A stretch of 40,877 nucleotides of DNA from a virus, in the UHGV virus genome UHGV-1515682. One strand, written 5' to 3'. This document shows positions 136 to 35,939 of this stretch, piece by piece. The position numbers were made by a program, and so were the translations under genes. Numbering within the stretch: position 1 is the stretch's first letter; every line of letters starts with the position of its first letter. Under the pieces are notes generated by a model. It saw only the letters and a program-made list of their open reading frames with translations, had not been told where the DNA came from and made no database searches.

Positions 136-150
136 TTACCTTAAAGGTAT
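136..150. promoter_or_regulatory. Dyad operator-like site ttaccttaaaggtat upstream of integrase
   Basis: Matches recurring TTACC-N5-GGTAA motif (one mismatch); flanked by inverted copies of tgacggtat (128-136) and ataccgtca (159-167). Confidence 0.45.
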
Positions 151-192
151 ACTCTCATACCGTCATGAAAATGGTTTCTATACGGGTGAATT

Positions 193-1443
193 GTGCTTAC
201 CGATACAAAATTAAAGAACCTCAAGCCACAGGACAAACTGTACAAAGTTTCCGATCGTGACGGGCTGTATGTAGCTGTGCTTACGTCAGGTACGGTCTCG
301 TTTCGCTATGACTACCGTATCAACGGTCGCCGCGAAACACTGGTAATCGGGCAGTATGGGCGTGACGGTATCAGCCTGGCAGAAGCGCGAGAAGAACTGA
401 TTGCTGCAAAGAAGCTGCTTAAAGCAGGCCAGTCGCCGGCTGCGGCTAAACGTGACGGTATCAAAAAGATTCGTGGTGCCGAGACGTTTGCGGTACATAC
501 CGACAGTTATATGAAACACGTCATCCTGGCTGACAGTACCCGCGCAATGAAGCAGGCGGTGATCGACCGTGACATACTTCCGGTTCTTGGCAACAAAATG
601 ATGACTGAAATTACCACATCGATGGTTCGTGATTTGTGTGACCGGATTGTCGAACGCGGTGGTCGGGCAACAGCAGTACAGGCAAGGGAGATCATCAGCA
701 GCGTATACCGTCACGCCAATGACCGTGGTCATGGTTTGTTTAATCCTGCGGCTGACATTAAACCTTCGTCTATCGCCATATTTAAACCAAGAGAGCGAAC
801 ACTGACACCAGAAGAAATTGGCCTGTTCTTCCGCACGCTGGATGCCATTGGTGCTATGGGCACTATGAAAATGGCTTTAAAGCTGGTGCTTATCACTATG
901 GTTCGTAAAGGCGAATTCACCAACGCAACGTGGGATGAAATAGATTTTAAAAAATGGACATGGACAATTCCTTCAGACCGCATGAAGGGAAGCCGGGCGC
1001 ACGTTATTTACCTGCCTAAACAGGCTCAGGATATATTGGTCGGGTTGCAGATGTGCGCTGGTGGAAGTGAATATCTGGTTCCTGGTCGTTACAATTTCCG
1101 GAAGCCATTATCTAATGCCGCGTTGAACTCTCTGATCGACAGAACGGTGAAAATAATAAATGAAGATGGTGAGCATATTCAGGGCTTCACCGTACACGAT
1201 ATGCGCCGTACAGCCAGTACGTTGTTGCATGAGGCTGGTTATCCTTCAGACTGGATTGAAAAGGCTCTGGCACATGAGCAGAAAGGTGTGCGCGCCGTAT
1301 ATAACAAAGCGGAATACGCCAGACAGCGCGCCTACATGTTGCAGCAGTGGGCCGATATGATTGATTCCTGGATTAACGGGGAGCATACGGATCTGATTCC
1401 GTTCTCCCCGTCGAAGTTTGAGAAGTGGATGGCGGGGGAATAA
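193..1443 (+). CDS. int: Phage tyrosine integrase (site-specific recombinase), GTG start
   Basis: 416 aa ORF; C-terminal HDMRRTASTLL...YNKAEY region typical of tyrosine recombinase catalytic domain; N-terminal arm-binding-like domain; position at prophage edge. Confidence 0.9.
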   Translation: MLTDTKLKNLKPQDKLYKVSDRDGLYVAVLTSGTVSFRYDYRINGRRETLVIGQYGRDGISLAEAREELIAAKKLLKAGQSPAAAKRDGIKKIRGAETFAVHTDSYMKHVILADSTRAMKQAVIDRDILPVLGNKMMTEITTSMVRDLCDRIVERGGRATAVQAREIISSVYRHANDRGHGLFNPAADIKPSSIAIFKPRERTLTPEEIGLFFRTLDAIGAMGTMKMALKLVLITMVRKGEFTNATWDEIDFKKWTWTIPSDRMKGSRAHVIYLPKQAQDILVGLQMCAGGSEYLVPGRYNFRKPLSNAALNSLIDRTVKIINEDGEHIQGFTVHDMRRTASTLLHEAGYPSDWIEKALAHEQKGVRAVYNKAEYARQRAYMLQQWADMIDSWINGEHTDLIPFSPSKFEKWMAGE

Positions 1444-1446
1444 CGT

Positions 1447-1641
1447 TTAATAGTTCTGCTGATTTTCTTCCATCTCTGCTTCTGCTGCCAGTGATTCAAT
1501 TTTGTTTTCGAATATTGCTGACAGTGTTGCAAATTCAGCATCAGTGACAGCGGGAATTGGAACAAACCTGATCCCGCTGTGTGCAAGCATGTTTGCAGTT
1601 TCAAGGCATTTTCTTAAATCTGCTGGTGATGCCCTGTTCAT
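1447..1641 (-). CDS. Hypothetical small protein (64 aa) translationally coupled to methyltransferase
   Basis: ATG at 1641-1639 overlaps methyltransferase stop (ATGA); shorter version of ORF 1447..1761. Confidence 0.35.
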   Translation of the reverse strand: MNRASPADLRKCLETANMLAHSGIRFVPIPAVTDAEFATLSAIFENKIESLAAEAEMEENQQNY

Positions 1642-2288
1642 GCAGCACGCTCCCGCCCCTGGTTGTCTGTTGGTGACATCGGAGCATTGCTGAATGCATT
1701 TGTTAATCCGCCAATATCCAACGCGTATCCAGGGTGTAGTTGCACTGCCGGGTCTTCGCACTGATTACCCCAAACATCGAAGCCATGAGACGTCTGGCGG
1801 GCGAACAGTTCAATGCGAGAAACATCGCCTAATAATTGCACAAGTTTTTCACGAACGATATCTGGCTTTCTTGAATGCCCAAGCCGCGGTGCGATAAATG
1901 ACTGAACGATCCCTGCATTAATGCGCGTAGGTAGTTTTCCCTTTACCGCAAACAGGCAATCTTCACTATTGGCGCGAGTCATGTGTCCCATACCCATAAC
2001 CAGTTTATCTGGTTGTCGACTACCACATTTTATCCACGTGAAGCCCTTCATCGTCATCAGACGGAATCCCCAGGCTTCAACAACTTTTAGTGCTTCGAGT
2101 GGTTGTGTTGGCACCCACCACATGGCCAACAGACAGTTTTCATCGGCCAAATCCCACACAGGAAGGCGGCAGATATCCAGCACACTCATAACCGGATATT
2201 TAAAACCGGCACCGCGATTACCATCTGCGGCTTTGTCCCGGTATACCCAGGGTGGATCTGCATAGATTAGTGTGTATTTCTTAGTCAT
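1638..2288 (-). CDS. MT-A70 family N6-adenine DNA methyltransferase (orphan, no cognate nuclease seen)
   Basis: N-terminal LIYADPPW motif (DPPW catalytic motif) and overall MT-A70-like sequence; start taken at ATG 2288 (MTKKYTLIYADPPW). Confidence 0.8.
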   Translation of the reverse strand: MTKKYTLIYADPPWVYRDKAADGNRGAGFKYPVMSVLDICRLPVWDLADENCLLAMWWVPTQPLEALKVVEAWGFRLMTMKGFTWIKCGSRQPDKLVMGMGHMTRANSEDCLFAVKGKLPTRINAGIVQSFIAPRLGHSRKPDIVREKLVQLLGDVSRIELFARQTSHGFDVWGNQCEDPAVQLHPGYALDIGGLTNAFSNAPMSPTDNQGRERAA

Positions 2289-2580
2289 AAACCACCCCAC
2301 AACATCCTATGCCGCTATAGTCGCCACGGCGAAGTCCGTTACCTTTTGTGATACATTGGTCCCTGCGAACCGCGATCCTTGCACGTTCAACATCACCAGA
2401 AGCAACATCCATACACTGAAGCCAAAGGTGAGCGGCAATGCGGAATTGCCCTTTTTTCTCTCTTTCAATCGCGCGTTTTTCGATCTCTATCGCCGCAGGA
2501 GTAACGGCGACAATCTTTGACGGACTGCGCATTGAAACCTTATTCATGTGATATTTTTCAAGTCGGCTTAACTTTCTCAC
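2281..2580 (-). CDS. Hypothetical protein (99 aa), GTG start with GAGGG RBS
   Basis: ORF upstream of and overlapping methyltransferase start; no recognisable motif. Confidence 0.45.
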   Translation of the reverse strand: MRKLSRLEKYHMNKVSMRSPSKIVAVTPAAIEIEKRAIEREKKGQFRIAAHLWLQCMDVASGDVERARIAVRRDQCITKGNGLRRGDYSGIGCCGVVYD

Positions 2581-2689
2581 TTAATCCAACCCTCTCTGAA
2601 AATTAATGCCAGCAGATAAAGCCATGCTGAAACAGAGGCCAGGAATAAGTACCATCCTGACCATTTGCTCCAGTGCCTTAGCAGCGCAC

Positions 2690-2938
2690 TCATGCAGCGT
2701 TGCTCACGGGACGATATACACGTTGCTGAACAGGAGGTTTTTTACCCTGGAACTCTGCCGGGCTTGCTGCCTGACGTTCATCAAGCCAACGCTCAACTTC
2801 GTCACGGTTCCATGCGCAGCGTTTGTCAGTGATATACCAGCGTTTAGGAAATTCCCCTGCGCGCTCCATACGGTCGATAGTGCTCCATGACAGTGGCACC
2901 ACCGCCAGGAGTTCCTTCTTACCTAATGCACCTTTCAT
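2690..2938 (-). CDS. AlpA-like / excisionase-like HTH regulator
   Basis: 82 aa; LLAVVPLSWSTIDRMERAGEFPKRWYITDKRCAWNRDEVERWL resembles AlpA/Xis-type winged HTH; strong RBS; near integrase. Confidence 0.7.
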   Translation of the reverse strand: MKGALGKKELLAVVPLSWSTIDRMERAGEFPKRWYITDKRCAWNRDEVERWLDERQAASPAEFQGKKPPVQQRVYRPVSNAA

Positions 2939-2987
2939 AAATACCTCTCTTGGTTGCAGTGCGGCGCGTGTGGCGCCGCGGTGGTGG

Positions 2988-3869
2988 TTACATAGATGTT
3001 TCGTTTAATTCTTCCCGACGAACGCTGTAAACGTCGGTGGCTTTTGCCAGCAGTTCGTCATCATCTGAAAGTTTTTGTGCAATGTATTTGTAAGCCTTAT
3101 CCAGTTCGGAGACAGTGCTGTAATTCATCGCTGCGCTGGTAAAGGCCATCAGCATTTCTTCTGGATCACGGCTATCCGCTTTACGAGTTTGCTCATCAGG
3201 CTTTTTCACTGGTTTAGCGTTGATCAGACTGTTCATTCCCGCAGCAGTAGTTGTTTGCGGAGTAATGTCTCGCTCAACGCGCGGTGCCGTTTCCTGTAAT
3301 TCGTCAGGGGTGTAAACACCGAGAAGCACATCAGGAGCGTGCAGGCGAGCCCATCGTTTCGTGCAAAGATAGGCAAGCTGCTGGCGCGGATCCTGTTCCC
3401 ACAATGGAGAGTTACGCACTCCGGCTTGCGCCATACTGATGGTAAGCTCACGGGGTTCTGCTTCTCCTTTAAGAACTGCTGACACAGTTACCGTCAGATT
3501 CGGTGATTTATCTGTTTTGCCGTTAACATTCGACCAGTCACCGCTCCAGCGATAATTCAGGCGTGTCGCCAGCAGGCTGGAAGAGGATACGACCGCGTTT
3601 ACCAACTGTGCTTCGTAGCCTAACGTTCCGTTTACCACATGCGTTTTCTGCGCCACGGCGAAAGGGTTCATTCCCCACTGTGCCGCCTGCATGGTCACCG
3701 CCAGACAATCGGCAGGTTTGCCTTCAAGATGTTTCGGTACAGTCGCTTTGCTTTGTGACATCAACTCCGCGAAACGCACCAGTTGATTCATGCCCTCCGG
3801 GCTGAAGATTGCCGCAGCAGTACCTACAGTTGCACCTGGTTGTGATGTGATTGCGATATCATTGCTCAT
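2988..3869 (-). CDS. recT: RecT-like single-strand annealing protein
   Basis: 293 aa; SPLWEQDPRQQLAYLCTKRWARL segment resembles the conserved RecT C-terminal region; sits directly downstream of and coupled (ATGA) to a PD-(D/E)XK exonuclease as in recE-recT pairs. Confidence 0.6.
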   Translation of the reverse strand: MSNDIAITSQPGATVGTAAAIFSPEGMNQLVRFAELMSQSKATVPKHLEGKPADCLAVTMQAAQWGMNPFAVAQKTHVVNGTLGYEAQLVNAVVSSSSLLATRLNYRWSGDWSNVNGKTDKSPNLTVTVSAVLKGEAEPRELTISMAQAGVRNSPLWEQDPRQQLAYLCTKRWARLHAPDVLLGVYTPDELQETAPRVERDITPQTTTAAGMNSLINAKPVKKPDEQTRKADSRDPEEMLMAFTSAAMNYSTVSELDKAYKYIAQKLSDDDELLAKATDVYSVRREELNETSM

Positions 3870-4687
3870 ACGTACATATCCTGTTTACGTGCCCAGTCAG
3901 GGCGTTTAATAATTTCCACTCCGCCCCACTCATCGTTGATGCGGCATTCGTGATAGGTATTCAGATCCCGGCGGAACAGAGCGTGCCCGGCATCGACATC
4001 CTGCGCATCCAGCTCGAACACGCGTACCGGATACCGACCACAATCAATGCTTTCGCTCACGGCAAGAAAGAAAAAACCATGCGGCTGACCAGTAACCCTC
4101 ATTGCTCCTTCGCGGTACATTGCGTCCTGCACGTGGTAGCGGAATTCCTCGATGTGGCGTGCAAAACGGTCCATATCTGCAACCTTTTTCACGTCGACGA
4201 TCACGTTGTGCTCGTTCAGCCATTTATCTGGACGAATTCGGCACAACTCACCCGTCTCTTCATCGTTCCAGTACATTGATGCTTCGCAGTAACCAGGTGC
4301 TTCCAGCATCCAGCGTGCCGCCGGGTGAGCCATTGCGCTATCACGCATCAGCTCCAGTTTCCGCCACTGCTCGGCATCAAGTACCGTAATCCCCATATCC
4401 GCTACATCACGAAGAAATGCTTCTTCGTCAGCTTTACCTTGTTTCGTCCGACGATCGAATTTCGGTGAAACAATGAAGCGTTTGTCGAACTCTCCAGGCT
4501 CCAGAAGCAGACAGTGCAATGCGGTTCCCATATCCAGTGCAGACTTTTTCTCTTCGTCTTCTGGTGCTGCCTGAACCCATTTAAGAAGCGCCGGATTCTT
4601 GGCAACCATGTCCAGTTGCGACTTACTCACGCCGTCACCGGCGTGGTAGTCTTCGTTGCTGATGTCGAAATAAATTCCCGGTTTCAT
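3866..4687 (-). CDS. PD-(D/E)XK exonuclease (RecE-like/YqaJ-like recombination exonuclease)
   Basis: 273 aa; acidic/Lys motifs (IVDVKK) consistent with PD-(D/E)XK fold; operon partner of annealase. Confidence 0.6.
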   Translation of the reverse strand: MKPGIYFDISNEDYHAGDGVSKSQLDMVAKNPALLKWVQAAPEDEEKKSALDMGTALHCLLLEPGEFDKRFIVSPKFDRRTKQGKADEEAFLRDVADMGITVLDAEQWRKLELMRDSAMAHPAARWMLEAPGYCEASMYWNDEETGELCRIRPDKWLNEHNVIVDVKKVADMDRFARHIEEFRYHVQDAMYREGAMRVTGQPHGFFFLAVSESIDCGRYPVRVFELDAQDVDAGHALFRRDLNTYHECRINDEWGGVEIIKRPDWARKQDMYV

Positions 4688-4983: not shown

Positions 4984-4990
4984 ACCCACC

Positions 4991-6183: not shown

Positions 6184-6202
6184 AACTTGTTACCTCGGTC
6201 TG

Positions 6203-6217
6203 TTACCGTTGAGGTAA
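6203..6217. promoter_or_regulatory. Dyad operator-like site ttaccgttgaggtaa (OL-proximal)
   Basis: Perfect TTACC-N5-GGTAA; overlaps -10/+1 of predicted leftward promoter. Confidence 0.55.
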
Positions 6218-6245
6218 TAATTATGCTTATTTGGTTTGGTGTCAA
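6217..6245 (-). promoter_or_regulatory. Putative leftward early promoter (PL-like): TTGACA-17-AATTAT
   Basis: Minus-strand TTGACA (6245-6240) and AATTAT (6222-6217) with 17-nt spacer, flanked by two dyad sites 62 bp apart. Confidence 0.45.
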
Positions 6246-6264: not shown

Positions 6265-6279
6265 TTACCCGTAAGGTAA
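6265..6279. promoter_or_regulatory. Dyad operator-like site ttacccgtaaggtaa (OL-distal)
   Basis: Perfect TTACC-N5-GGTAA upstream of putative PL -35. Confidence 0.55.
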
Positions 6280-6336: not shown

Positions 6337-6921
6337 TTATTGTTTGCTTTTTTCGTTCTGGTTGATGACAAATTCAATGTAACTTTCGATCTTTGCTTTC
6401 TCTGTTTCAGGTAACAATGCGTAGCGCGAGCGGTCATAGTTGATAGTTGCAGGGTCGTGCGGGTGAATCAGTAGTTCATATCCGTGACGCCCGAATGCAG
6501 ATGCAACATTCTCCAGGGTGGAAATGGAAACGCTGACCTCATTGTTTAACAGGCGGCTGATTGTCACCTGGGCTACGCCGGATGCGCGGTGAAGTTTTCC
6601 CTGTGTTGAAAGGTCGCGGCTTTCGCTCATCCAGCGTTCCAGGTTGTGAGCCGCCAGCTGGCCAATGTCGCTTGGGCCGACAGGCTGAAAACCTTCCTGA
6701 GAAAGCGAGCGATCGATATCAAGCCAGTTACGGGGTTTATTGGCGGCAGCTTCAATTTTTCGTGCAACCTGGTCGCCGATAACCTTCTTGCCAAGAGCCC
6801 AGCGGTTTACCAGATTTGCCTGAGTTCCAAGTTTTTCTGCCATCCGCGTCTGAACACCATTGAATTCACGGTCGATCAAGTCGTTGAGATTTTGCCTGCG
6901 GACGTCCTGGATACTTTTCAT
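6337..6921 (-). CDS. CI-like repressor with two HTH (XRE-type) regions and no recognisable S24 peptidase domain
   Basis: 194 aa; two XRE-like HTH stretches (…TRMAEKLGTQANLVNRWALGKK… and …ASGVAQVTISRLLNNEVSVSISTLENVA…); divergent from cro-like gene across an operator-rich intergenic region; no S24-like Ser/Lys motifs. Confidence 0.65.
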   Translation of the reverse strand: MKSIQDVRRQNLNDLIDREFNGVQTRMAEKLGTQANLVNRWALGKKVIGDQVARKIEAAANKPRNWLDIDRSLSQEGFQPVGPSDIGQLAAHNLERWMSESRDLSTQGKLHRASGVAQVTISRLLNNEVSVSISTLENVASAFGRHGYELLIHPHDPATINYDRSRYALLPETEKAKIESYIEFVINQNEKSKQ

Positions 6922-6976: not shown

Positions 6977-6991
6977 TTACCCAACAGGTAA
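6977..6991. promoter_or_regulatory. Dyad operator-like site ttacccaacaggtaa (OR region)
   Basis: Perfect TTACC-N5-GGTAA in repressor/cro intergenic region. Confidence 0.55.
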
Positions 6992-6993: not shown

Positions 6994-7008
6994 GCACCTC
7001 ATGGGTAA
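6994..7008. promoter_or_regulatory. Degenerate dyad site gcacctcatgggtaa (OR region)
   Basis: Half-site GGTAA with weak left half, 17 bp from site at 6977. Confidence 0.25.
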
Positions 7009-7021
7009 CTATCCTTGATTT

Positions 7022-7050
7022 TTGTTACCTTATGGGTGAATATTTATTAT
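7022..7050 (+). promoter_or_regulatory. Putative rightward early promoter (PR-like): TTGTTA-17-TATTAT
   Basis: -35 7022-7027, -10 7045-7050; dyad site 7025-7039 lies between the hexamers. Confidence 0.4.
7025..7039. promoter_or_regulatory. Dyad operator-like site ttaccttatgggtga (OR region)
   Basis: TTACC-N5-GGTGA (one mismatch), overlapping predicted PR spacer. Confidence 0.5.
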
Positions 7051-7075: not shown

Positions 7076-7306
7076 ATGAGCGATAACGGACATTTCGATT
7101 TCAAAAAGCACTGGCTTGCACTTACTCCGGATGAGCGTGAAGCCTTCGCACAGGAAGCCGGAACGACGAGTCACTATATCCAGACTCACTTAACAGGTAA
7201 GCGCAAAATGCCAGGTAAAGTATTGATGAATGGGCTTTTTAAAGCCTGTAAAACAAGACAATGGCTGCGCTCAAAAGCAGAACTGGCATACTTCTTCTAC
7301 TCATGA
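7076..7306 (+). CDS. Cro-like small HTH regulator (YdaS/Cro-type)
   Basis: 76 aa; first rightward gene opposite repressor; HTH-like segment AFAQEAGTTSHYIQTHLTGKRKMPG. Confidence 0.55.
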   Translation: MSDNGHFDFKKHWLALTPDEREAFAQEAGTTSHYIQTHLTGKRKMPGKVLMNGLFKACKTRQWLRSKAELAYFFYS

Positions 7307-7327: not shown

Positions 7328-7351
7328 AGACCGCCACCCGGCGGTCTTTTC
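7328..7351 (+). terminator. Rho-independent terminator after cro-like gene
   Basis: agaccgcc-accc-ggcggtct hairpin followed by tttt. Confidence 0.65.
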
Positions 7352-7361: not shown

Positions 7362-7376
7362 GTACCTCAAAGGTAA
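7362..7376. promoter_or_regulatory. Dyad operator-like site gtacctcaaaggtaa
   Basis: GTACC-N5-GGTAA (one mismatch) just after cro terminator, upstream of replication genes. Confidence 0.45.
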
Positions 7377-7456
7377 TAAATAACCAAATCTGGTTGATAT
7401 TTTTTTTGTGTCAGCACAAAATAACCGTAATCCCAATACTAATAGCAGGGCTTACC

Positions 7457-9283: not shown

Positions 9284-9298
9284 TTACCTGATGGGTAA
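9284..9298. promoter_or_regulatory. Dyad operator-like site ttacctgatgggtaa
   Basis: Perfect TTACC-N5-GGTAA; 62 bp upstream of site 9346. Confidence 0.5.
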
Positions 9299-9317: not shown

Positions 9318-9346
9318 TTGATTTCGTGTCTTATGTGGTTTTTAAT
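9318..9346 (+). promoter_or_regulatory. Putative promoter TTGATT-17-TTTAAT for nin-like operon
   Basis: -35 9318-9323, -10 9341-9346, bracketed by two dyad sites. Confidence 0.4.
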
Positions 9347-9363: not shown

Positions 9364-9708
9364 ATGAGAAAACAGATACAGGCTCTTGGTCGACTCAAAA
9401 CAGGCCAGATGAACAAAACAGAATCTGCGTATTGCCAGCACCTTGAGCAGCGTAAACGTGCAGGGGAAATCGCCTGGTATCGATTCGAGGGTATCAAGCT
9501 GCGGTTAGCTGATAACACGTTCTATACGCCAGATTTTGCTGTGATGCTCGCCACCGGAGAGATGGAACTGCACGAAGTGAAAGGTTTCTGGACCGACGAC
9601 GCCAGGGTGAAAACCAAAGTCGCCGCAGATCAGTATCCGTTCCGAATCATCGGTGTAACGGTTAAACCAAAGAAAGCAGGTGGTGGCTGGAACATCGAAG
9701 AGTTCTGA
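9364..9708 (+). CDS. Hypothetical phage protein, possibly DUF1064-like
   Basis: 114 aa ORF with RBS; domain assignment from recalled family resemblance only. Confidence 0.45.
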   Translation: MRKQIQALGRLKTGQMNKTESAYCQHLEQRKRAGEIAWYRFEGIKLRLADNTFYTPDFAVMLATGEMELHEVKGFWTDDARVKTKVAADQYPFRIIGVTVKPKKAGGGWNIEEF

Positions 9709-12089: not shown

Positions 12090-12363
12090 CCTTCAACTTG
12101 CCGTCAAAGGTGAATACTTCGATGCCATGATTCGTGGAGAGAAAACGGAAGAGTATCGTCTGTGTAATGACTACTGGAATAAACGCCTCGTTAATCGTAA
12201 GTATGACCGCCTGATTATCACAAAGGGATATCCGAAGCGCGACGATTCCAGCCGCAGAATTGATGTTCCGTATGACGGATATGAAATCAAGACAATCACA
12301 CATCCTCACTTCGGCGATAAACCGGTAAATGTGTTCGCGATAAAGGTAAATATTGATGGCTAA
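12082..12363 (+). CDS. Hypothetical protein, ASCH/PUA-like fold suspected
   Basis: 93 aa; N-terminal LAVKGEYFDAMIRGEKTEEYR pattern; GTG start with GGAGG RBS. Confidence 0.4.
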   Translation: MANLQLAVKGEYFDAMIRGEKTEEYRLCNDYWNKRLVNRKYDRLIITKGYPKRDDSSRRIDVPYDGYEIKTITHPHFGDKPVNVFAIKVNIDG

Positions 12364-12694
12364 ATCAGCAGCAGAGCGCAAAGCCGCTCAGAGAGCCAGA
12401 CAAGCTGCATCTGGTGTGCGTAAGCTGGAAATTGTGCTTGATGCTCAGGAAATTGAAATGCTGGAGCGTAACTGTGCCACGCGTCGCCCCGGGCGTGCGC
12501 CTTACGAATTTGGTGAGTATATAGCGTTACTGATCCGCCAGGATGATGCACGCGTGCGCGGGCGTATAAAATCGATCAGCAGAAAACGTTGCGGTAAGTG
12601 CGGCGAGAGAGTTCCAGTTAATTCATGCCCGTGTAATGGTGACTCGCAATGCTGGGTGACTAAAGGCTGGCATGAAACGAAATTAATAGTGTGA
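12356..12694 (+). CDS. Hypothetical zinc-ribbon protein at the Q-antiterminator position
   Basis: 112 aa; CGKCGERVPVNSCPCNGDSQC cysteine cluster; last early gene before a terminator and the terminase genes. Confidence 0.45.
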   Translation: MAKSAAERKAAQRARQAASGVRKLEIVLDAQEIEMLERNCATRRPGRAPYEFGEYIALLIRQDDARVRGRIKSISRKRCGKCGERVPVNSCPCNGDSQCWVTKGWHETKLIV

Positions 12695-12702: not shown

Positions 12703-12742
12703 GAGTAGATTATGCATGATGAATTTGATGGTTTTGAATACT

Positions 12743-12768
12743 GCCGCCAACTATGGCGGCTTTATTTT
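12743..12768 (+). terminator. Rho-independent terminator upstream of terminase genes (tR'-like)
   Basis: gccgcc-aactat-ggcggc hairpin followed by tttatttt. Confidence 0.6.
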
Positions 12769-12811
12769 GCATGGTACTATTACCACAACGGTAACTATTA
12801 CCACGGTGGTT

Positions 12812-13408
12812 ATGATGCCTGCTGAACCTAAAACCTATAAACGCAAATCAACGCAATTTAAGCCGCTCACAGCAATGCAGGAGGCTTATTGCCAGTCATA
12901 CATCAAAACGCCTGAAAACCAGACTCAGGCAGCGATTAACGCAGGATTCTCCCCAAATACAGCGGCAGTTAAAGCCAGTGTCATGATGCGCGATGAACGC
13001 ATTCAAAAACGGATTGCCGAGTTGATGGAGGAGCGCAACAAACGAATGCGCGTCAGTGCTGATTACGTTCTCATGCGCCTGGTGGAGATCGACCAGATGG
13101 ACGTGATCGACATCCTCAACGACGATGGGAGCCTTAAGCCAATCCGCGAGTGGCCGAAAATCTGGCGCACTACGCTTAGTGGCTTTGATCTGTCATCGAC
13201 CATCATGAACATGAACGAGGATTCGATAGAGACAATCCTCAAAAAAATTAAATGGCCTGACAAGGTGAAGAACCTCGAACTGATTGGTAAGCATGTTGAT
13301 GTCAACGCGTTCAAAGAACGTCTGGATGTTAATGTGAATGTGACAATTGCTGATCGCATAGCAGCAGCCAGGAAGCGACTCAAAGAACGTCAGGATGGTA
13401 ATCAGTGA
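12812..13408 (+). CDS. Terminase small subunit
   Basis: ~198 aa; motif QEAYCQSYIKTPENQTQAAINAGFSPNTAAVKASVMMR typical of phage small terminase; immediately upstream of and overlapping large terminase; start at ATG 12812. Confidence 0.65.
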   Translation: MMPAEPKTYKRKSTQFKPLTAMQEAYCQSYIKTPENQTQAAINAGFSPNTAAVKASVMMRDERIQKRIAELMEERNKRMRVSADYVLMRLVEIDQMDVIDILNDDGSLKPIREWPKIWRTTLSGFDLSSTIMNMNEDSIETILKKIKWPDKVKNLELIGKHVDVNAFKERLDVNVNVTIADRIAAARKRLKERQDGNQ

Positions 13409-14880
13409 AAGATACAGCGTTATCTCCTGAAGAGCAGTTGATCGAGGATATTGCAGGGTTCACTCACGATCCGCTTGGTTATGCCCTCTATGCGTTCCCG
13501 TGGGGGGAAGAGGGGACTGAACTGGCACATGCCACCGGTCCACGTCAGTGGCAGGCCGATGCGTTCCGAGAGATACGTGATCACCTGCAGAATCCAGAGA
13601 CGCGCTATCAGCCGCTTATGCTGGCACGCGCTTCTGGTCACGGTATTGGTAAATCCGCATTCATCTCAATGCTGATCAACTGGGGCATGTCCACTTACGA
13701 GGATTGTAAGGTCGTGGTGACCGCCAACACCGACAACCAGCTACGAACGAAGACCTGGCCGGAAATTATCAAGTGGTCGAACCTTGCTATCACGAAAGAC
13801 TGGTTTACCTGTACCGCTACCGCGATGTACAGCAATGACCTAGGGCACGACAAGCGGTGGCGGGCTGACGCAATACCCTGGTCTGAGCACAACACCGAGG
13901 CATTCGCCGGACTACACAACGAGCGCAAACGCATCATCGTGGTGTTTGATGAAGCGTCGAACATTGCGGATCTGGTGTGGGAAGTTGCCGAGGGTGCGCT
14001 TACGGACGAAGACACTGAGATTATTTGGGTGGCGTTCGGAAACCCTACACGTAACACCGGGCGTTTTCGCGAATGTTTCCGCAAATATAAACACCGCTGG
14101 AAAACTGCGCAGATTGACAGCCGGACGGTGGAAGGCACTAACAAACAGCAGTTGCAGAAATGGGTTGATGACTACGGGGAAGACAGCGACTTCGTTAAAA
14201 TCCGTGTGCGCGGCATATTCCCTGATGCATCTGAATTGCAGTTTATCCCTACCGGTCTTACTGATGAGGCAATGAAACGGGTGGTAACCGCTGCGCAGGT
14301 TGCACATGCTCCGGTGATAATCGGCGTTGACCCGGCATACTCCGGCGTTGATGACGCTGTGATATACCTGCGGCAGGGGCTGCACAGTAAGGTGCTGTGG
14401 ACCGGCAACAAGACCACTGACGATCTGATTATGGCAAAGCGTATCGCTGACTTTGAAGACCAGTATCAGGCTGACGCGGTGTTCATCGACTTCGGTTACG
14501 GTACCGGGCTGAAGTCAATCGGTGACGGTTGGGGGCGCACATGGCAACTTGTTCCGTTCGGTGGCGCGTCTACTGACCCGCAGATGCTCAACAAGCGTGG
14601 GGAGATGTTCAACTCATGCAAGACATGGCTGAGGCTGGGCGGCATGCTGGATGACCAGGAAACAGCGGACGACCTGTCGGCGGCAGAGTACAAAGTTCGC
14701 GTGGACGGTAAAATCGTTATCGAACCGAAGGAAGATATCAAAGAGCGGCTTGGGCGTTCTCCTGGTAAAGGCGATGCGCTACTGCTGACGTTTGCGTTCC
14801 CTGTGTCGAAGCGTCTGCGAATTCCCGGGCAGCAGAACCAGCAAGGCAAGGCGCTTACCGAGTACGATCCATATGCTTAG
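13405..14880 (+). CDS. Terminase large subunit
   Basis: 491 aa; Walker A-like ASGHGIGKS, ATPase plus nuclease regions; GTGA overlap with small subunit. Confidence 0.9.
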   Translation: MKDTALSPEEQLIEDIAGFTHDPLGYALYAFPWGEEGTELAHATGPRQWQADAFREIRDHLQNPETRYQPLMLARASGHGIGKSAFISMLINWGMSTYEDCKVVVTANTDNQLRTKTWPEIIKWSNLAITKDWFTCTATAMYSNDLGHDKRWRADAIPWSEHNTEAFAGLHNERKRIIVVFDEASNIADLVWEVAEGALTDEDTEIIWVAFGNPTRNTGRFRECFRKYKHRWKTAQIDSRTVEGTNKQQLQKWVDDYGEDSDFVKIRVRGIFPDASELQFIPTGLTDEAMKRVVTAAQVAHAPVIIGVDPAYSGVDDAVIYLRQGLHSKVLWTGNKTTDDLIMAKRIADFEDQYQADAVFIDFGYGTGLKSIGDGWGRTWQLVPFGGASTDPQMLNKRGEMFNSCKTWLRLGGMLDDQETADDLSAAEYKVRVDGKIVIEPKEDIKERLGRSPGKGDALLLTFAFPVSKRLRIPGQQNQQGKALTEYDPYA

Positions 14881-15695
14881 TCTTTATTTTTATCATCGAA
14901 ACCTGATAATCCAGATAGAACACCAAAGTTATTAAAAACGTTTGGCTTACCAGATTTTAATCCGGATAAGTTGTGTTGCTCCAAAAAGTTGCTAATTGTT
15001 TGGCCGTTGCCAAGTGCAAGGCTTTTTATTTGAGATTTTTCAGGGTATTTGAGTTTGTATTCGTCGAAATCATTTTGGAGGGTCTTATATGCCTCATTCA
15101 TTCTTCCCAGAGTTTCCGATATCTCTTTTAATGAATGATTTAGAGCTGCTAACTGAGCACTGGCGGATCTCAATTCGTCATCTTTAGCTTTCAACTCGGC
15201 AGTCAATTCCCCCATACTATTCTTTGATCGAATAATCTCTTCTTTCATCTCTTGGATGTCTTTTTCCGCGCCAGTCTTAACTTTGTCGTATGTAACATCT
15301 TTTTTAGCCAATAACCTCTGCAGTCTGGTTTCACGCTGGATTTTTCTTGCCTTCAGGTGATTTTCGATTGAGTCATTATTATCAAGAGGCTTTGCTTGCC
15401 ATACGTTAATGATATTGTTTACCCATGGTAATAGGCAGCAGATAGCAATTACAGATAAGCATGGATAAAACATAACAGTTTTCCATGTGCTGTTATCTGA
15501 GATATATGAAATTTTATCTATTATGTTTGATTTGCTAAAAAATAGATAAAGAATTGATTTCCAGTTGAAGGCGCACCAGGACATAACAAAAGCACCAAGC
15601 ACAGGGTTTTTGGCTCGATTCACGGCAGTATTGGCAGTAGATAAAAACAGCTCTTTAAACGATTCAAACATGCTAATTACCTTGAAGTTTTTCAT
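14877..15695 (-). CDS. AT-rich cargo gene: membrane-anchored coiled-coil protein of unknown function
   Basis: 272 aa from ATG 15695 (MKNFKVISMF); two predicted TM helices then long coiled coil; opposite strand to flanking late genes; low GC. Confidence 0.6.
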   Translation of the reverse strand: MKNFKVISMFESFKELFLSTANTAVNRAKNPVLGAFVMSWCAFNWKSILYLFFSKSNIIDKISYISDNSTWKTVMFYPCLSVIAICCLLPWVNNIINVWQAKPLDNNDSIENHLKARKIQRETRLQRLLAKKDVTYDKVKTGAEKDIQEMKEEIIRSKNSMGELTAELKAKDDELRSASAQLAALNHSLKEISETLGRMNEAYKTLQNDFDEYKLKYPEKSQIKSLALGNGQTISNFLEQHNLSGLKSGKPNVFNNFGVLSGLSGFDDKNKD

Positions 15696-15699: not shown

Positions 15700-15714
15700 A
15701 TACCTTTAAGGTAA
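15700..15714. promoter_or_regulatory. Dyad operator-like site atacctttaaggtaa adjacent to cargo gene start
   Basis: ATACC-N5-GGTAA (one mismatch) 5 bp upstream of ATG 15695. Confidence 0.45.
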
Positions 15715-15767
15715 TTTGCGGTCATCAAGCAAAAAAATGCCCGGCGAACCGGGCGAACTGGAAGCAA

Positions 15768-15790
15768 TGAGTTATGCCTTCCGTGGCTGT
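15768..15790 (-). terminator. Rho-independent terminator downstream of tRNA (minus strand)
   Basis: Minus-strand GCCCGG-TTCG-CCGGGC followed by T7 (A-run 15768-15774 on + strand). Confidence 0.55.
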
Positions 15791-15917
15791 ACGGGTTTAC
15801 AGCATGAAGTCATCGCAATGGCGTCCTGCTGTAAAAAGGGCGGTGATAGTCCTTCAAGGGAAACCATCACCGCCAAGCACCTGGAACTTCTGGCATCACG
15901 GTCCTTAGGCGTGATTC

Positions 15918-15994
15918 TGGCGTGGCATGCAGGATTCGAACCTGCGACCAACCGCTTAGAAGGCGGTTGCTCTGTCCAACTGAGCTAATGCCAC
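15918..15994 (-). tRNA. tRNA-Arg (anticodon UCU)
   Basis: Hand-folded cloverleaf: acceptor GTGGCAT/ATGCCAC, D-arm GCTC…GAGC, anticodon stem ACCGC/GCGGT with loop CTTCTAA, T-arm GCAGG-TTCGAAT-CCTGC, discriminator G, encoded CCA. Confidence 0.85.
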
Positions 15995-16315: not shown

Positions 16316-16330
16316 TTACCTGAAAGGTAA
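16316..16330. promoter_or_regulatory. Dyad operator-like site ttacctgaaaggtaa upstream of head gene operon
   Basis: Perfect TTACC-N5-GGTAA; same sequence as site 35925. Confidence 0.5.
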
Positions 16331-16420
16331 TAATTCACGCGTTAAATGTCAACTTTCTACGATAAATAAATCATATGTGGTTAAATTGGTAATAATTTAA
16401 TTGCGTACGGAGTCATTGAT

Positions 16421-32089: not shown

Positions 32090-32097
32090 AAGGAGAT

Positions 32098-32232
32098 ATG
32101 ATGGTTCAAATAACTTTTATTGTACTAATATGTGCAGCGTTTTTATGCTATTCATACATTTTGATAAAAATGGGTTTCAATTGGAATCTCTGTTGCGTGC
32201 AGCGGCATGGTTCGGCTTTGTAGTATTCGGAA
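32098..32232 (+). CDS. Small hydrophobic peptide (44 aa)
   Basis: ATG 32098/32101 preceded by AGGAG; hydrophobic product; AT-rich; below ORF-track cutoff. Confidence 0.3.
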
Positions 32233-32308
32233 TTGTATTGTTCGGAAGAATAATAAAATAACTAGTTAATTTGTGGATTGGTGCTGTTTTTCCATGATAG
32301 GGGTAATT

Positions 32309-32689
32309 ATGAGAAAAGTATTTTTGATTTTTGGATTTATGCTTCTCGTTGGATGCCAGTCAGCTGCACAGTTTGAAAGAAATATGCTTACGTGGCGCGG
32401 GCAGAGTATAGACGCAATGGTTCAGCAGTGGGGGTATCCTCAGGGAGAGCTTACATCTCCAGATGGAAACAGAGTGTATGTTTACTCAAGCTCTGGTAGT
32501 TATAACGTACCACAAACCACAACGTATAATACTACGTCTAATCTAATTGGTAATACTATATATTCAAACACATACGCAACAACTGATGGCGGTTATACAC
32601 TCCATTTCAGTTGCTCTGTTTACGTTGAGTTTGGTGCTGATAAGATTATTAAAAATGTTACATGGCGCGGTAATAATTGCGTTGCGTGA
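32309..32689 (+). CDS. Cargo lipoprotein
   Basis: 126 aa; signal peptide with lipobox (MRKVFLIFGFMLLVGC); AT-rich; Ser/Thr/Asn/Tyr-rich mature region. Confidence 0.6.
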   Translation: MRKVFLIFGFMLLVGCQSAAQFERNMLTWRGQSIDAMVQQWGYPQGELTSPDGNRVYVYSSSGSYNVPQTTTYNTTSNLIGNTIYSNTYATTDGGYTLHFSCSVYVEFGADKIIKNVTWRGNNCVA

Positions 32690-32697
32690 CATGTCAC
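32686..32697. repeat. Perfect 12-bp palindrome GTGACATGTCAC (copy 2)
   Basis: Overlaps stop codon of lipoprotein gene; immediately followed by terminator. Confidence 0.5.
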
Positions 32698-32722
32698 AGG
32701 CCGCTTTCGCGGCCTTGTTTTT
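32698..32722 (+). terminator. Rho-independent terminator after lipoprotein gene
   Basis: aggccgc-tttc-gcggcct hairpin followed by tgttttt. Confidence 0.65.
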
Positions 32723-32882
32723 AACGAATGCCACCGCCACCCGGGCGGGAATCCGCAGAACGCCCACCGCAGCGGGAGCCGTCAGCGGCAGTATCGCTGT
32801 CGTGCTGACAACGACCGGCAAAGGCCTGAGTTGAAGCTACCAGAGACAACAAAACGAACAGTGCAGCAAATGCTTTTTTCAT
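32721..32882 (-). CDS. Possible small secreted peptide (53 aa)
   Basis: Internal ATG gives MKKAFAALFVLLSLVASTQAFA signal-peptide-like N-terminus; mature part low-complexity and GC-rich, so may be spurious. Confidence 0.25.
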   Translation of the reverse strand: MKKAFAALFVLLSLVASTQAFAGRCQHDSDTAADGSRCGGRSADSRPGGGGIR

Positions 32883-32943
32883 TGTGACATTTCCATCTAT
32901 AAGCCACCTCAATGTGGCGTCAATGAGTGTAGCACTGACTTTT

Positions 32944-32966
32944 GTTTCGTCCACAAAAAAGCCCGC
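32944..32966 (-). terminator. Rho-independent terminator after 32981-33613 gene
   Basis: Minus-strand AGAAGCCCGC-AGCG-CGGGCTT followed by T6. Confidence 0.6.
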
Positions 32967-32980
32967 GCTGCGGGCTTCTA

Positions 32981-33613
32981 TTAATGCAGTTTATCTTTGC
33001 TTATAACCAGTAGTCTGTGGGTATGCACATCTTTATCACTGCCCCAACAGAAATCAGCCCACTGGCTATAGAAATCATCCCATGATGTCATGAAGCTAAG
33101 AGGTCTATCTTCTTCAGAGCCATCTGAAACGTATACATTATATCCTGGGGTGTTTATAGCCCAAGAAATCATTCTTTCCCAGAATCTTCTCCCATCGATT
33201 GTTTGTTGCTCATCAGATACAACGATCGCATATTGCTCTAGGAAGAACTGAAAAAAAATCTGAGGCAAACCATGAACAGCACGGTCATGAATAACATTAG
33301 GCGTACGCCATACCATGATCTGCGTACATGTTCTTTTGGCTTCGACGATATCTTCCCGAAAGATTAACTTAACCGCATACACCGTTTCTGGAGTATCGCT
33401 GGTAGTAATCATTCTGTAATGATCGCCATTACAAGATTTTACAAGGCGATAACCATAAGGTGTTGTGAATCCCGGAAGAACGAAGTCAACCACACCTTTC
33501 GCTAAGTAGCTTTCGGTGTGACTAGTGTTCTTCTCAGACATGTTCAGTTTTCTATCGAAATCTGCTTCTGGGATAATGTATGGCATCGCTTTTCTTGTTG
33601 TATTTGTTCTCAT
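32981..33613 (-). CDS. Cargo protein of unknown function (210 aa)
   Basis: AT-rich ORF with own terminator and operator-like site 60 bp upstream; no recognisable motif. Confidence 0.55.
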   Translation of the reverse strand: MRTNTTRKAMPYIIPEADFDRKLNMSEKNTSHTESYLAKGVVDFVLPGFTTPYGYRLVKSCNGDHYRMITTSDTPETVYAVKLIFREDIVEAKRTCTQIMVWRTPNVIHDRAVHGLPQIFFQFFLEQYAIVVSDEQQTIDGRRFWERMISWAINTPGYNVYVSDGSEEDRPLSFMTSWDDFYSQWADFCWGSDKDVHTHRLLVISKDKLH

Positions 33614-33672
33614 TTCGTCCTCCCATGTTTGGCTACAGGACGCGTTTTGAAGGGAAGATTAAAAATGCTTTC

Positions 33673-33687
33673 TTACCCTTGAGGTAA
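33673..33687. promoter_or_regulatory. Dyad operator-like site ttacccttgaggtaa
   Basis: Perfect TTACC-N5-GGTAA upstream of 33613 gene start. Confidence 0.5.
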
Positions 33688-33758
33688 TAGTACGCTATTC
33701 ACCCCAAGTCTGCAATCTGTACAGAATTATTTAAAGGTACGTCCCTGTGCCGCCGCCG

Positions 33759-34445
33759 TCAGAAGAACCCTGCCTTGTCGTTGATGTACTCCGCGTGCGT
33801 CTGGATATCACGCAGGCATTTGCTCACACCAACGATGTAACAGAACATGGTGGTCAGCTCCGCCGCCGCGCCCGATACGTCGTGCCCGTCTTCCTGTAAC
33901 TGGTTCAGCAGATTCATCAGCAGTGAGTTCTCCGTCAGGCCGAGAACACCAGACGGCGAATGAATCAGGCTACGGTAGCCTGGCTTCAGTGGGGCACTGT
34001 AGGTTTTGTTCTCTATCTTCATCGCCTGCATTACTGCTGACGCCGTGGCGTTGGCTACCTGGTCGGCAACCATCTTTATGCGTTCTTCCTGCGGGAGCGA
34101 GTTTTTAATGTAACTTCCGGTGCGGCGGATCTGAGGAAGAACCTCACCTGTAACCCATTTACGAAAGCGGTATGGGATAGTGCCTGGTGTCACCGCATCG
34201 CGGCAGCGGAGGATCAGTGTGTAGAGGCCTGACTCGTTGATAATATTGGTTTCGCCTTGACGGCCTAAGTTAAATTTAGCCCTTTCATCATCATCAAGAG
34301 ATTTTATTGACATAGTGGGGTTTGTCAGTTGAAGAGCTTTAATAACGTCTTTGGCAACAAACCAAGGATTTCCATCAATAACAATGGCTCGAATGGTTGC
34401 TTCTGATTCAAAATGAAAAACAGATGGGGTTACGTTAGCAGTCAT
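33759..34445 (-). CDS. Bro-N domain antirepressor-like protein
   Basis: 228 aa from ATG 34445; N-terminal Bro-N signature (FHFESEATIRAIVIDGNPWFVAKDV…GLYTLILR…RFRKWVTGEVLPQIRRTGSY); C-terminal ~70 aa homologous to the product of 35591-35848. Confidence 0.75.
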   Translation of the reverse strand: MTANVTPSVFHFESEATIRAIVIDGNPWFVAKDVIKALQLTNPTMSIKSLDDDERAKFNLGRQGETNIINESGLYTLILRCRDAVTPGTIPYRFRKWVTGEVLPQIRRTGSYIKNSLPQEERIKMVADQVANATASAVMQAMKIENKTYSAPLKPGYRSLIHSPSGVLGLTENSLLMNLLNQLQEDGHDVSGAAAELTTMFCYIVGVSKCLRDIQTHAEYINDKAGFF

Positions 34446-34721
34446 AGTGATCACCTTTGTAGTTAGGTTAATCACCACTACCGACGCCAATCGGTTGGTG
34501 GTGAACTGTGCAGGGTTGGCGTAACCGGCTACAAAGGACCCGGCGCACCTTTCGGTGCCCCCACACAGCCCACCATAGAATAGGTGCGCTTTACACATAA
34601 AAAAACCGCTTATGCGGCATATGTGCCTCTGTAGTAATCCGGGACGCCAATCCCGGCACTGGATTTTGCCAGTGCCCGATTACTATGGCACAAGAGGAGT
34701 GCGATGTAAATTTACCGTAAA

Positions 34722-34736
34722 GGTAATGATAAGCGC
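34722..34736. promoter_or_regulatory. Dyad operator-like site ttaccgtaaaggtaa
   Basis: Perfect TTACC-N5-GGTAA in divergent region between ant and 34840 gene. Confidence 0.5.
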
Positions 34737-34804
34737 GAAGAAACATTAAAATCAACCGTATTTGGTTGATTGCGTTTAACGCTTGATCACCTGAAAGCAA
34801 GATA

Positions 34805-34819
34805 TTACCTTTAAGGTAA
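34805..34819. promoter_or_regulatory. Dyad operator-like site ttacctttaaggtaa
   Basis: Perfect TTACC-N5-GGTAA 21 bp upstream of ATG 34840. Confidence 0.5.
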
Positions 34820-34839
34820 TGTTATTGTGAGGAAAAGCA

Positions 34840-35568
34840 ATGGAAGTTTTCTGGATAGTTGTTGGTGTGGTTGCGGTGATTATTTACGTTATCAACCAGA
34901 ACAAGACTAAGATCTCTGATCGTACGGTCGTTAATCATAACAAAACGATAAAGACCGAAGATGGGGAGATAACGATTAATCGTACACAGGTGATAGAACA
35001 CACCTCTACTCAGTTTCAAAAAACTGGAGGTAATGCGCCTAATATTTCCGCACCTCCTGCTTATGATAGTGCGGTAATCCAGACATATTATAAACAGCAG
35101 GAGTTAGCAAAAGAGAGGCAACTGATTCAGCCAAAGCCGTTTACAGCTGAGATTCCACCTGGAGTGTCAACGCGTCCGGCATATCATGGAAGATTCCCTG
35201 GTGATGACATATCGTCTCAGTCATCTAAAAAAGCACCTCAGGCAATATCAGAGCCAGCAAGAATACCTTCTGTATCGCCGCCAAAAGAAGAATCAGCTAA
35301 CAGAGTTTCAAGTGGTAGCAAGCAGTGCTTGCGATGCAGAATAAACCTTCCATATGAAAAATTCAGGAAATCGTCAAAAAATCCAGATGGATTGACTAAA
35401 TGGTGTGCAAGGTGTCTCGATGGCCCAAAGAATACACGCCATATGAAGTGGTGCCCAATTTGTAATGTCCGCAGAAAACGAACCAGCTTTTACCCTAATA
35501 ATCAAAATGCGGACGGCTTAATGGCATGGTGCAAAACGTGCTGGGATGAGCACAAAGCGAAACGATAG
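34840..35568 (+). CDS. Membrane-anchored protein with two C-terminal zinc-ribbon-like repeats
   Basis: 242 aa; N-terminal TM helix; repeated C-x2-C…DG…W-C-x2-C units. Confidence 0.55.
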   Translation: MEVFWIVVGVVAVIIYVINQNKTKISDRTVVNHNKTIKTEDGEITINRTQVIEHTSTQFQKTGGNAPNISAPPAYDSAVIQTYYKQQELAKERQLIQPKPFTAEIPPGVSTRPAYHGRFPGDDISSQSSKKAPQAISEPARIPSVSPPKEESANRVSSGSKQCLRCRINLPYEKFRKSSKNPDGLTKWCARCLDGPKNTRHMKWCPICNVRRKRTSFYPNNQNADGLMAWCKTCWDEHKAKR

Positions 35569-35584
35569 GCCGCTCTTGCGGCCT
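35567..35584. terminator. Hairpin between convergent genes
   Basis: aggccgc-tctt-gcggcct stem-loop overlapping stop of 34840-35568. Confidence 0.45.
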
Positions 35585-35590
35585 TTAAAT

Positions 35591-35848
35591 TTACCGGGTT
35601 TGTTTTCGTAATTGTTCGGCACAATAGTCGAGATGTGTTTGCAGATCCCGCATAGACATCTGTGAGCTGGTGACGTAGTTAATCAGTGCAGTCAGTTCGG
35701 CAAGTGGGCCATCGACATTAAATCCATCCTTATCGAGATCCCGGAGTAATTTCATCAAGTGCGATCCCTCCACCAGTGACCTGACGCCTCCCGGCGTGTG
35801 AATCCTTTCGGTAAATCCGTCTTCCAGTGGATAGTGATACTGCTGCAT
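35591..35848 (-). CDS. Small antirepressor-like protein behind a LexA box
   Basis: 85 aa from ATG 35848 (MQQYHYPLEDGF…) with GGAGAAG RBS; homologous to C-terminal domain of Bro-N protein; near-consensus LexA box 20 bp upstream. Confidence 0.6.
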   Translation of the reverse strand: MQQYHYPLEDGFTERIHTPGGVRSLVEGSHLMKLLRDLDKDGFNVDGPLAELTALINYVTSSQMSMRDLQTHLDYCAEQLRKQTR

Positions 35849-35867
35849 CTTATCTTCTCCATGCAAT

Positions 35868-35887
35868 AACTGTATGTTTATACAGTA
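35868..35887. promoter_or_regulatory. LexA (SOS) box AACTGTATGTTTATACAGTA
   Basis: CTGT-N8-ACAG with AT-rich spacer, 17/20 to TACTGTATATATATACAGTA; overlaps TATAAA -10-like hexamer on minus strand. Confidence 0.65.
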
Positions 35888-35924
35888 ACAAATAATTTGT
35901 TTGCTATCCAGCACGTTTTGCAAA

Positions 35925-35939
35925 TTACCTGAAAGGTAA
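35925..35939. promoter_or_regulatory. Dyad operator-like site ttacctgaaaggtaa
   Basis: Perfect TTACC-N5-GGTAA upstream of LexA box. Confidence 0.5.

Follow-up and report, generated by a model that had tools for sequence, protein, structure and literature searches.

Dispersed palindromic sites in a phiV10-type prophage as probable operators of its lysogeny repressor Rep

The stretch of DNA described here, UHGV virus genome UHGV-1515682, is 40,877 nucleotides (nt) long and is called the window. It is a prophage of the phiV10/epsilon15 type of podovirus, genus Uetakevirus, and belongs to the phiV10 lineage of Escherichia coli. A short inverted repeat, TTACC-N5-GGTAA, is found at many places between its genes. 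This text is about that repeat, called the dyad below, and about Rep, the lysogeny repressor that probably binds it.

The switch genes and the count of dyads

Of 5426 complete E. coli genomes, 562 carry the immunity region of this prophage. The integrase gene int lies at 193-1443. The genes of the lysogeny switch, and the LexA box that goes with them, are these:

6337-6921, minus strand: rep, of SPC32H type; its product has an N-terminal helix-turn-helix (HTH) domain that binds DNA, a middle HTH-like domain for dimerisation and a C-terminal segment for tetramerisation
7076-7306, plus strand: small Cro-like regulator gene, divergent from rep, matching the phrog_35 transcriptional repressor (E 5.6e-13)
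35591-35848, minus strand: ant, a small antirepressor gene of SPC32H type (PDB 5D50 chain E, E 1.4e-46)
35870-35885: perfect LexA box, CTGTATGTTTATACAG, 21 nt upstream of ant

Rep matches the SPC32H Rep (PDB 5D50 chain A) over residues 1-190 of 194, at E 3.5e-42. The aromatic positions of the tetramer interface are retained as Y/F, together with an invariant F (alignment and PMC9986798). Its Pfam matches are to HTH_3, HTH_26 and YdaS-type domains only, and no S24 peptidase domain is among them. Behind the LexA box, ant adjoins the tailspike gene.

The SPC32H protein has been studied. It is built from an N-terminal DNA-binding, a middle dimerisation and a C-terminal tetramerisation domain (PMC9986798). 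It is reported to sit on palindromic sites as a tetramer, with the DNA-binding domains drawn from different dimers, and to be dismantled by the tetrameric Ant (PMC9638917, PMC9986798). This mode of repression has been termed poorly characterised (PMC9986798).

There are 11 exact copies of the dyad in the window, against 0.01 expected from dinucleotide-preserving shuffles, and none of 100 shuffles reaches 11. The exact copies start at 6203, 6265, 6977, 9284, 9346, 12780, 16316, 33673, 34712, 34805 and 35925. If one mismatch is allowed there are 16, where the shuffles predict 0.65; the additions are 136, 7025, 7362, 12798 and 15700. A degenerate copy at 6994, with two mismatches, brings the total of putative operators to 17. 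The folded consensus is aTTACC(t)nnn(a)GGTAAt. The half-sites by themselves are somewhat common 5-mers in the window.

E. coli K-12 served as a control. In 200 kilobases (kb) of its DNA there is one exact dyad, which falls in a coding region, and there are nine with one mismatch; nine of these ten lie within genes. Per unit length, the window holds about 50 times as many exact dyads as K-12 DNA. All 16 window dyads with at most one mismatch are intergenic once gene starts are corrected against annotated relatives, in a window of which only some 6-10% is non-coding. The corrections put the start of terS at 12815 (as in epsilon15 and phiv142-3, and 3' of the terminator at 12743-12760) and set ant to 35591-35848. 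An open reading frame (ORF) at 34591-34800, which is without family support, was discounted as a gene.

Copies with two mismatches number 28 in the window, compared with about 10 in shuffles. They were considered as weak extra sites and rejected: K-12 has 105 per 200 kb, or some 21 per 40.9 kb, a density equal to that of the window, so they are background from codon composition.

An earlier, sequence-only reading of this stretch had reported the dyad as a dispersed, wholly intergenic element, and both descriptions hold. It had also proposed counting the motif in host and shuffled DNA; on that count the dyad is equally frequent neither in K-12 nor in coding regions. Its list of positions was essentially right, except that '34722' is really 34712 and that the copies at 136, 7025, 7362 and 15700 carry one mismatch and are not identical to the rest. 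The list also overlooked the tandem pair 12780/12798, which is likewise intergenic, since it is flanked by a terminator and the terS start at 12815.

Promoter register and conservation

The putative operators and the promoters most closely tied to them are given below. No strand is assigned to the dyads.

136-150: int operator, one mismatch, TTACCTTAAAGGTAT, upstream of int; the -10-like TATACT at 148-153 overlaps its right end
6203-6217: proximal site of the left operator (OL), covering the -10 end and start (+1) of the leftward promoter PL; phylogenetic footprint in five lineages
6245 to 6217, minus strand: predicted PL, TTGACA-17-AATTAT, between the two OL sites; its -10 ends on the first base of site 6203
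6265-6279: distal OL site, its centre at about -62 from the PL start, 62 base pairs (bp) from 6203
6977-6991: site 1 of the right operator (OR), proximal to rep, over the predicted leftward rep promoter region
6994-7008: OR site 2, degenerate, GCACCTCATGGGTAA, 17 bp from site 1
7025-7039: OR site 3, one mismatch, within the spacer of the rightward early promoter (PR)
7362-7376: one mismatch, after the cro terminator 7328-7347; the start predicted for TTGATA-17-CAAAAT (7394-7422) is about 60 bp downstream
9284-9298: distal site of the post-replication module, 62 bp from 9346
9318-9346, plus strand: predicted post-replication promoter, TTGATT-17-TTTAAT, conserved in epsilon15, phiV10 and relative L006
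9346-9360: proximal site of the post-replication module, over -10/+1; its AGGTAA doubles as the Shine-Dalgarno sequence of gene 9364-9708
12780-12794: first tandem site at terS, between the terminator 12743-12760 and the terS start 12815; its equivalent is annotated as repressor-binding in epsilon15
12798-12812: second tandem site, with one mismatch, at 18 bp from the first; it overlaps the ribosome-binding site of terS
15700-15714: one mismatch, in the spacer/-10 of leftward ATGACC-17-TATAAT (15725 to 15697), accessory gene 14877-15695
16316-16330: between a leftward tRNA-Arg unit and the rightward head operon; equivalent annotated as repressor-binding in epsilon15
33673-33687: abutting the -10 of leftward TTGCAG-17-TACTAT (33715 to 33687), ahead of gene 32981-33613
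34712-34726: over -10/+1 of leftward TTGATT-18-TATCAT (34755 to 34726)
34805-34819: 93 bp from 34712, with TTGATC (34783-34788) 16 nt upstream
35925-35939: in the divergent ant/tailspike control region; equivalent annotated as repressor-binding in epsilon15

At six sites (6203, 9346, 33673, 34712, 16316 and 34805) a -10 element abuts the dyad or falls within it. The register in which the -10 ends on the first base of the site is common to 6203, 9346, 34712 and 33673. At 7025 and 15700 the dyad is found in the promoter spacer. The overlap of several dyads with -10/+1 regions, as first suggested from the sequence, is thus supported by promoter predictions as well as by phylogenetic footprints.

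These footprints are found across diverged relatives, where site, -35, -10 and site stay in register while the flanks diverge. CTATTGACA and the PL spacing are conserved in epsilon15 and in the relatives L004 and L006. In the post-replication module the order is site 9284, 19 bp, TTGATT, 17 bp and TTTAAT, the last T of which is the first base of site 9346. At 16316, a TTGACA (16352 to 16347, minus strand) stands exactly 16 nt from the site in every lineage, for a 17-nt promoter spacer. This means that the half-site TACCTT in 16316 can be the -10 of a leftward tRNA-Arg promoter. That TTGACA-17-TACCTT (16352-16324), kept in all lineages, leads into tRNA-Arg(tct) at 15994-15918 on the minus strand. 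By the same geometry of TTGATC and 16 nt, the TACCTT within 34805 can be the -10 for gene 34840-35568.

Three sites lie in the interval from rep to cro, at spacings of 17 and 31 bp. PR has two readings, either with the conserved TTGATT at 7013-7018 or as TTGTTA-17-TATTAT at 7022-7050. OR site 2, which the sequence-only reading had listed as degenerate, is a real site. It is degenerate in the E. coli lineage and perfect at the equivalent position in epsilon15, SPC32H and a Citrobacter werkmanii prophage, and its GCACC/GAACC left half recurs in L004-L006. The int site at 136 has one and the same mismatch at the equivalent position in epsilon15, phiV10, SPC32H, the relatives L004, L006 and L092, and the C. 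werkmanii prophage (L093).

The dyad is over-represented in related phages too. Copies with at most one mismatch number 15 in epsilon15, 14 in phiV10 and 18 in SPC32H. It is also over-represented, at the same positions, in one metagenomic phage and in prophages of Serratia, Raoultella, Pseudocitrobacter and Citrobacter werkmanii. The Rep proteins of the lineages that share the word are 42-59% identical to that of the window, the 42% being epsilon15 Rep. In alignment their N-terminal HTH, including the recognition helix NL(V/I)(N/S)RW, is nearly invariant.

The epsilon15 RefSeq record contains seven features labelled 'protein_bind, repressor, lysogeny', and 7/7 coincide with dyad matches. Three are at PL, one follows the replication genes, and the other three precede terS, the head operon and the tail fibre gene respectively.

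Selection on the sites was measured with distinct haplotypes of four intergenic regions from some 82 related phages, with the window as reference. The ten core positions per site differ from the window in 0.7% of cases, against 6.0% for other intergenic columns, which is about eight times less. Variable columns make up 7/80 of the core and 158/494 of the rest.

Spacing is conserved as well. Among 80 close relatives the 62-bp distance was seen in 153 cases, compared with three of 61 or 63 bp, and it also occurs in 7 diverged lineages. Both of the 62-bp pairs reported earlier (6203/6265 and 9284/9346) are therefore correctly measured and kept in relatives. Spacings repeated across lineages are 62, 48, 17/18, 75/76 and 93 bp, of which 62 and 93 are both close to integral numbers of helical turns. 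A scan of viral contigs for dyad pairs 62 bp apart returned at least 120 stretches, all from this phage family, where chance predicts almost none. Among 117 newly fetched stretches, 87 have a Rep homologue and 82 a Cro-like gene. In the remaining 30 the pair lies within about 3 kb of the end of the fetched stretch, and nearly all of these have recognisable PL or post-replication modules. Divergent Rep loci were sought in viral contigs as well, which gave only ones that are 99-100% identical; a genome scan gave two loci.

The relatives do differ at inner half-site position 6. Within exact sites it is A in 1/22 in the window, as against 9/22 in epsilon15, 9/22 in SPC32H and 7/18 in C. werkmanii. 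The start of the Rep recognition helix differs between the window and the other three (TQA against RSQ). Taken together, this may be a difference in fine specificity or immunity.

Several further observations touch on these sites. A longer inverted repeat, GACGGTA...TACCGTC (121-165), surrounds site 136 within the attachment-site arm beside int. The epsilon15 record marks the equivalent stretch as integrase-binding and RNase III sites, so Rep at site 136 might also affect recombination. The ORF 15737-15988 (phrog_4647, like phiV10 p04) is antisense to tRNA-Arg and probably not a gene. The phiV10 RefSeq record NC_007804.2 has terS at 41-715 (window 12734-13408), with a start that takes in the terminator and both dyads; the start used for epsilon15 and phiv142-3 (window 12815) is more plausible.

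The promoter at 34755 to 34726 is predicted to drive an isrK-like RNA, a C4 antisense RNA and a Bro-N/Ant-domain gene. The RNAs, at 34599-34675 and 34494-34580 (Rfam, minus strand), lie between this promoter and the Bro-N gene at 33759-34598, the annotated start of which is probably too far upstream. The C-terminal 80 residues of its product are 41% identical to the small Ant. Judged by these matches, 34494-34755 and the Bro-N gene are a secondary antirepressor module like P1 immI, under a putative Rep operator.

The lysis promoter region (38696-38734) has only the half-site GGTAA, at about 38707-38711, where epsilon15, phiV10 and SPC32H have a full or one-mismatch site. The window prophage lacks an O-antigen modification module in the interval from the tailspike to the lysis genes.

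A second conserved intergenic word, ATATGTGGTT(T/A), is found at 9331-9341, 16373-16383 and 35970-35980, in degenerate form at about 38721-38731, and in epsilon15 at 2989, 24752 and 35954. It lies 45-57 bp downstream of the dyads, where the post-replication, head, tailspike and lysis operons begin, and a -10-like word comes 0-7 nt after it. It is either an extended -10 of TRTGn type (TGTGg+TTAAAT) or a late-activator site.

The attachment core (40701-40717; cf. PMC9782041), ATTGAGTGGGAATGATT, occurs once, near the right end. A match to the host Hfq-binding small RNA STnc490 at 40780-40877 is cut by the end of the window. From the single core and this match it follows that the window begins just inside attL and ends some 160 bp past attR.

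Proposed repression by Rep and the alternatives

The dyads are, at a probability of about 85%, the operators of Rep, which would repress transcription directly all over the genome and be released by Ant. That the dyads are protein operators spread over early, accessory and late operons had been proposed from the sequence, with the 6337-6921 product as the likely binder. This still stands: Rep is the best candidate, being a homologue of SPC32H Rep, and the epsilon15 record labels the same sites as repressor sites. What did change is the idea of a dimeric regulator, given that the studied homologue is tetrameric when it binds DNA (PMC9638917, PMC9986798).

In a lysogen, Rep, which is predicted to be non-cleavable and to have two HTH-type domains, would fill the roughly 17 sites. 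At most of these it would sit on the -10/+1 region or the spacer of sigma-70-type promoters, and so shut down transcription directly. Units silenced like this would be PL, PR, the post-replication operon, int, the tRNA-Arg unit, several accessory genes and the Bro-N/Ant module. The terminase, head and tailspike units are probably also shut.

At PL and the post-replication promoter a second site lies 62 bp upstream, or about six helical turns. Rep would bind such a pair cooperatively, as one tetramer or as two that interact, and the DNA would probably form a small loop round the promoter. The retention of the 62-bp spacing across diverged relatives suggests such cooperative binding or looping by a tetrameric Rep. 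The constant 19 bp between upstream site and -35 points to a constraint on the two sites themselves.

Induction can be pictured from the homologue. DNA damage would cause LexA to leave the ant promoter, after which Ant would disassemble the Rep tetramers. With these lost, all operons would be released together.

A number of points weigh against this picture. Rep binding at the dyads is inferred from sequence, as are looping and the choice of late units that are directly repressed. All promoters are consensus predictions, and at the terS tandem sites there is no convincing sigma-70 candidate. The dyads at 7362, 9284, 6265 and 35925 (the last with respect to the tailspike) lie about 60 bp upstream of the nearest predicted start, so that repression there needs cooperation with another site. 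A loop of 62 bp is tight, and the enclosed promoter dictates part of the spacing. The Cro-like gene always accompanies rep (82 versus 87 of 117 loci), and this co-occurrence cannot separate the two proteins as binders. Finally, the operator DNA used in the SPC32H and epsilon15 assays is only putatively this dyad.

Some dyads could instead be roadblocks or insulators behind terminators, like stoperators. This would apply chiefly to 12780/12798, and also to 7362 and 9284. These dyads directly follow rho-independent terminators at 7328-7347 and 12743-12760, and terS lacks a good sigma-70 promoter. The tandem sites may indeed act on transcripts that arrive through the upstream terminator. As a replacement for promoter repression this is unlikely, however. 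The dyads are palindromic, intergenic and absent within operons, and 9284 and 7362 have conserved -35 boxes at a fixed distance downstream. A roadblock role would moreover add to Rep binding and not replace it.

Another phage regulator might be the main binder, acting as an activator at about -60 or as a lytic-phase repressor. It could be the Cro-like protein, the phrog_536 protein (12353-12694) or the PerC-like one. Cro-type proteins usually share operators with the repressor, several dyads are near -60, the classical class I activator position, and the Cro-like gene goes with the dyad pair almost as often as rep. Since every lineage down to 42% Rep identity shares one word, co-variation cannot prove Rep over Cro either. 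We nevertheless consider a different main binder quite improbable. Dyads cover -10/+1 at six promoters, late and accessory ones included, where a lytic-phase binder would be counter-productive. The epsilon15 label names a repressor, a Rep homologue is documented on palindromic DNA (PMC9638917), and the invariant recognition helix of Rep parallels the invariant dyad.

A role as RNA, the alternative offered by the sequence-only reading, is very hard to uphold. Each dyad does fold into a hairpin of 5-9 bp (-3.3 to -7.2 kcal/mol), and at 9346, 15700 and 12798 the right half is at Shine-Dalgarno distance. Hairpins are what any palindrome yields, however, and here the stem sequence itself is invariant (42 exact copies). 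Of 24 single mismatches, 21 break a pair without compensation. The only three compensated doubles are all non-syntenic, two of them within window genes. Many dyads also lie upstream of predicted starts or between divergent promoters, and no Rfam family matches at the dyad sites. As a general role, a ribosome-binding element was rejected, as only 2-3 of the 17 sites are at the right distance (9346, 15700 and 12798 alone fit).

A host transcription-factor site or a chance compositional repeat is scarcely credible, given the single, coding exact dyad in 200 kb of K-12, shuffles that never reach 11 copies, and a dyad that travels with the phage family across at least six host genera.

A more far-reaching proposal is that repression depends on obligatory micro-loops or bridges of Rep tetramers, and that immunity groups are set by Ant-Rep pairing or by preferences at inner positions, not by divergence of operator and repressor in the lambdoid style. 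This was prompted by one word being kept throughout the Rep family (in Escherichia, Salmonella, Serratia, Raoultella, Citrobacter and Pseudocitrobacter), down to 42% Rep identity, along with rigid 62 and 17/18-bp spacings. The position-6 contrast (A in 1/22 in the window, 9/22 in epsilon15) hints at inner-position preferences. The proposal is tentative, and rather doubtful as a whole.

Comparison with known systems

Dispersed repressor sites in this phage group are not new, as they are already on record in the epsilon15 RefSeq annotation. The finding reveals no new kind of regulation. The full map of 17 sites for the phiV10 lineage, with its promoter registers, is in no annotated record or open-access paper examined, and may be in primary papers outside the search. 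Similarly, rigid 62-bp pairs and family-wide invariance of the operator word are in none of the annotated records and open-access papers examined, and are possibly in primary papers. Full-text search found no open paper that gives the operator sequence.

The prophage type is common, and it underlies O157 typing and reporter phages as well as serotype-converting Salmonella phages. The operator map would explain how one non-cleavable repressor and a LexA-controlled antirepressor can switch a whole genome. It tells which accessory genes should stay silent in lysogens, and marks precise targets for the engineering of inducible or locked-lytic derivatives. The conserved 62-bp pairs provide a simple, testable short-loop repression system for a structurally known tetramer.

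Other phages also scatter one repressor site over their genome. The conserved inverted repeats (CIRs) of Streptomyces phage phiC31 are about 17 bp long, are found in many promoter regions between genes and are the targets of that phage's repressor. The window differs from phiC31 in that repressor family, host and motif are unrelated.

The stoperators of cluster A mycobacteriophages (L5) are likewise many copies of one repressor site spread over the genome. Those are asymmetric 13-mers in transcribed regions, which block elongation depending on orientation. The window sites are symmetric, strictly intergenic and mostly overlap promoter elements, so the stoperator analogy drawn earlier fails.

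The comparison with P1 C1, also made earlier, is valid as a functional analogy and not as family membership. One repressor directly holds many scattered operons, including an immI-type antirepressor module, and a member of the C4 antisense RNA family is found downstream of operator 34712. P1 operators, however, are asymmetric 17-mers bound by monomeric C1. The window dyads are palindromic, Rep is an unrelated HTH protein, and its homologue is tetrameric.

With lambda the window shares divergent rep and cro genes with three operators between them (6977, 6994, 7025), of which one falls in the spacer of PR and another over the presumed promoter of rep, and two or three operators at PL. The dispersed sites had been proposed in place of a simple OL/OR switch, but the window does have an OR of three sites and an OL of two, to which the dispersed sites are added. 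Differences are that Rep has no S24 autocleavage domain, that induction would go through an antirepressor, that there are extra operators at int, late and accessory operons, and that pairs are 62 bp apart round a promoter and not adjacent.

The closest match is the Rep-Ant switch of SPC32H and epsilon15. The window has extra operators at lineage-specific accessory genes (15700, 33673, 34712 and 34805), its OR site 2 is degenerate, and the lysis genes lack a full site in front of them. None of the sequence records compared annotates the 62-bp pairing, the int site or the three OR sites. Shared are full-length Rep and Ant homologues, a LexA box at ant, and the identical word at the same positions, namely at PL, at the post-replication module and ahead of terS, the head operon and the tailspike. 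Every defining feature of the system that can be read from sequence is present, and on those grounds the locus belongs to it.

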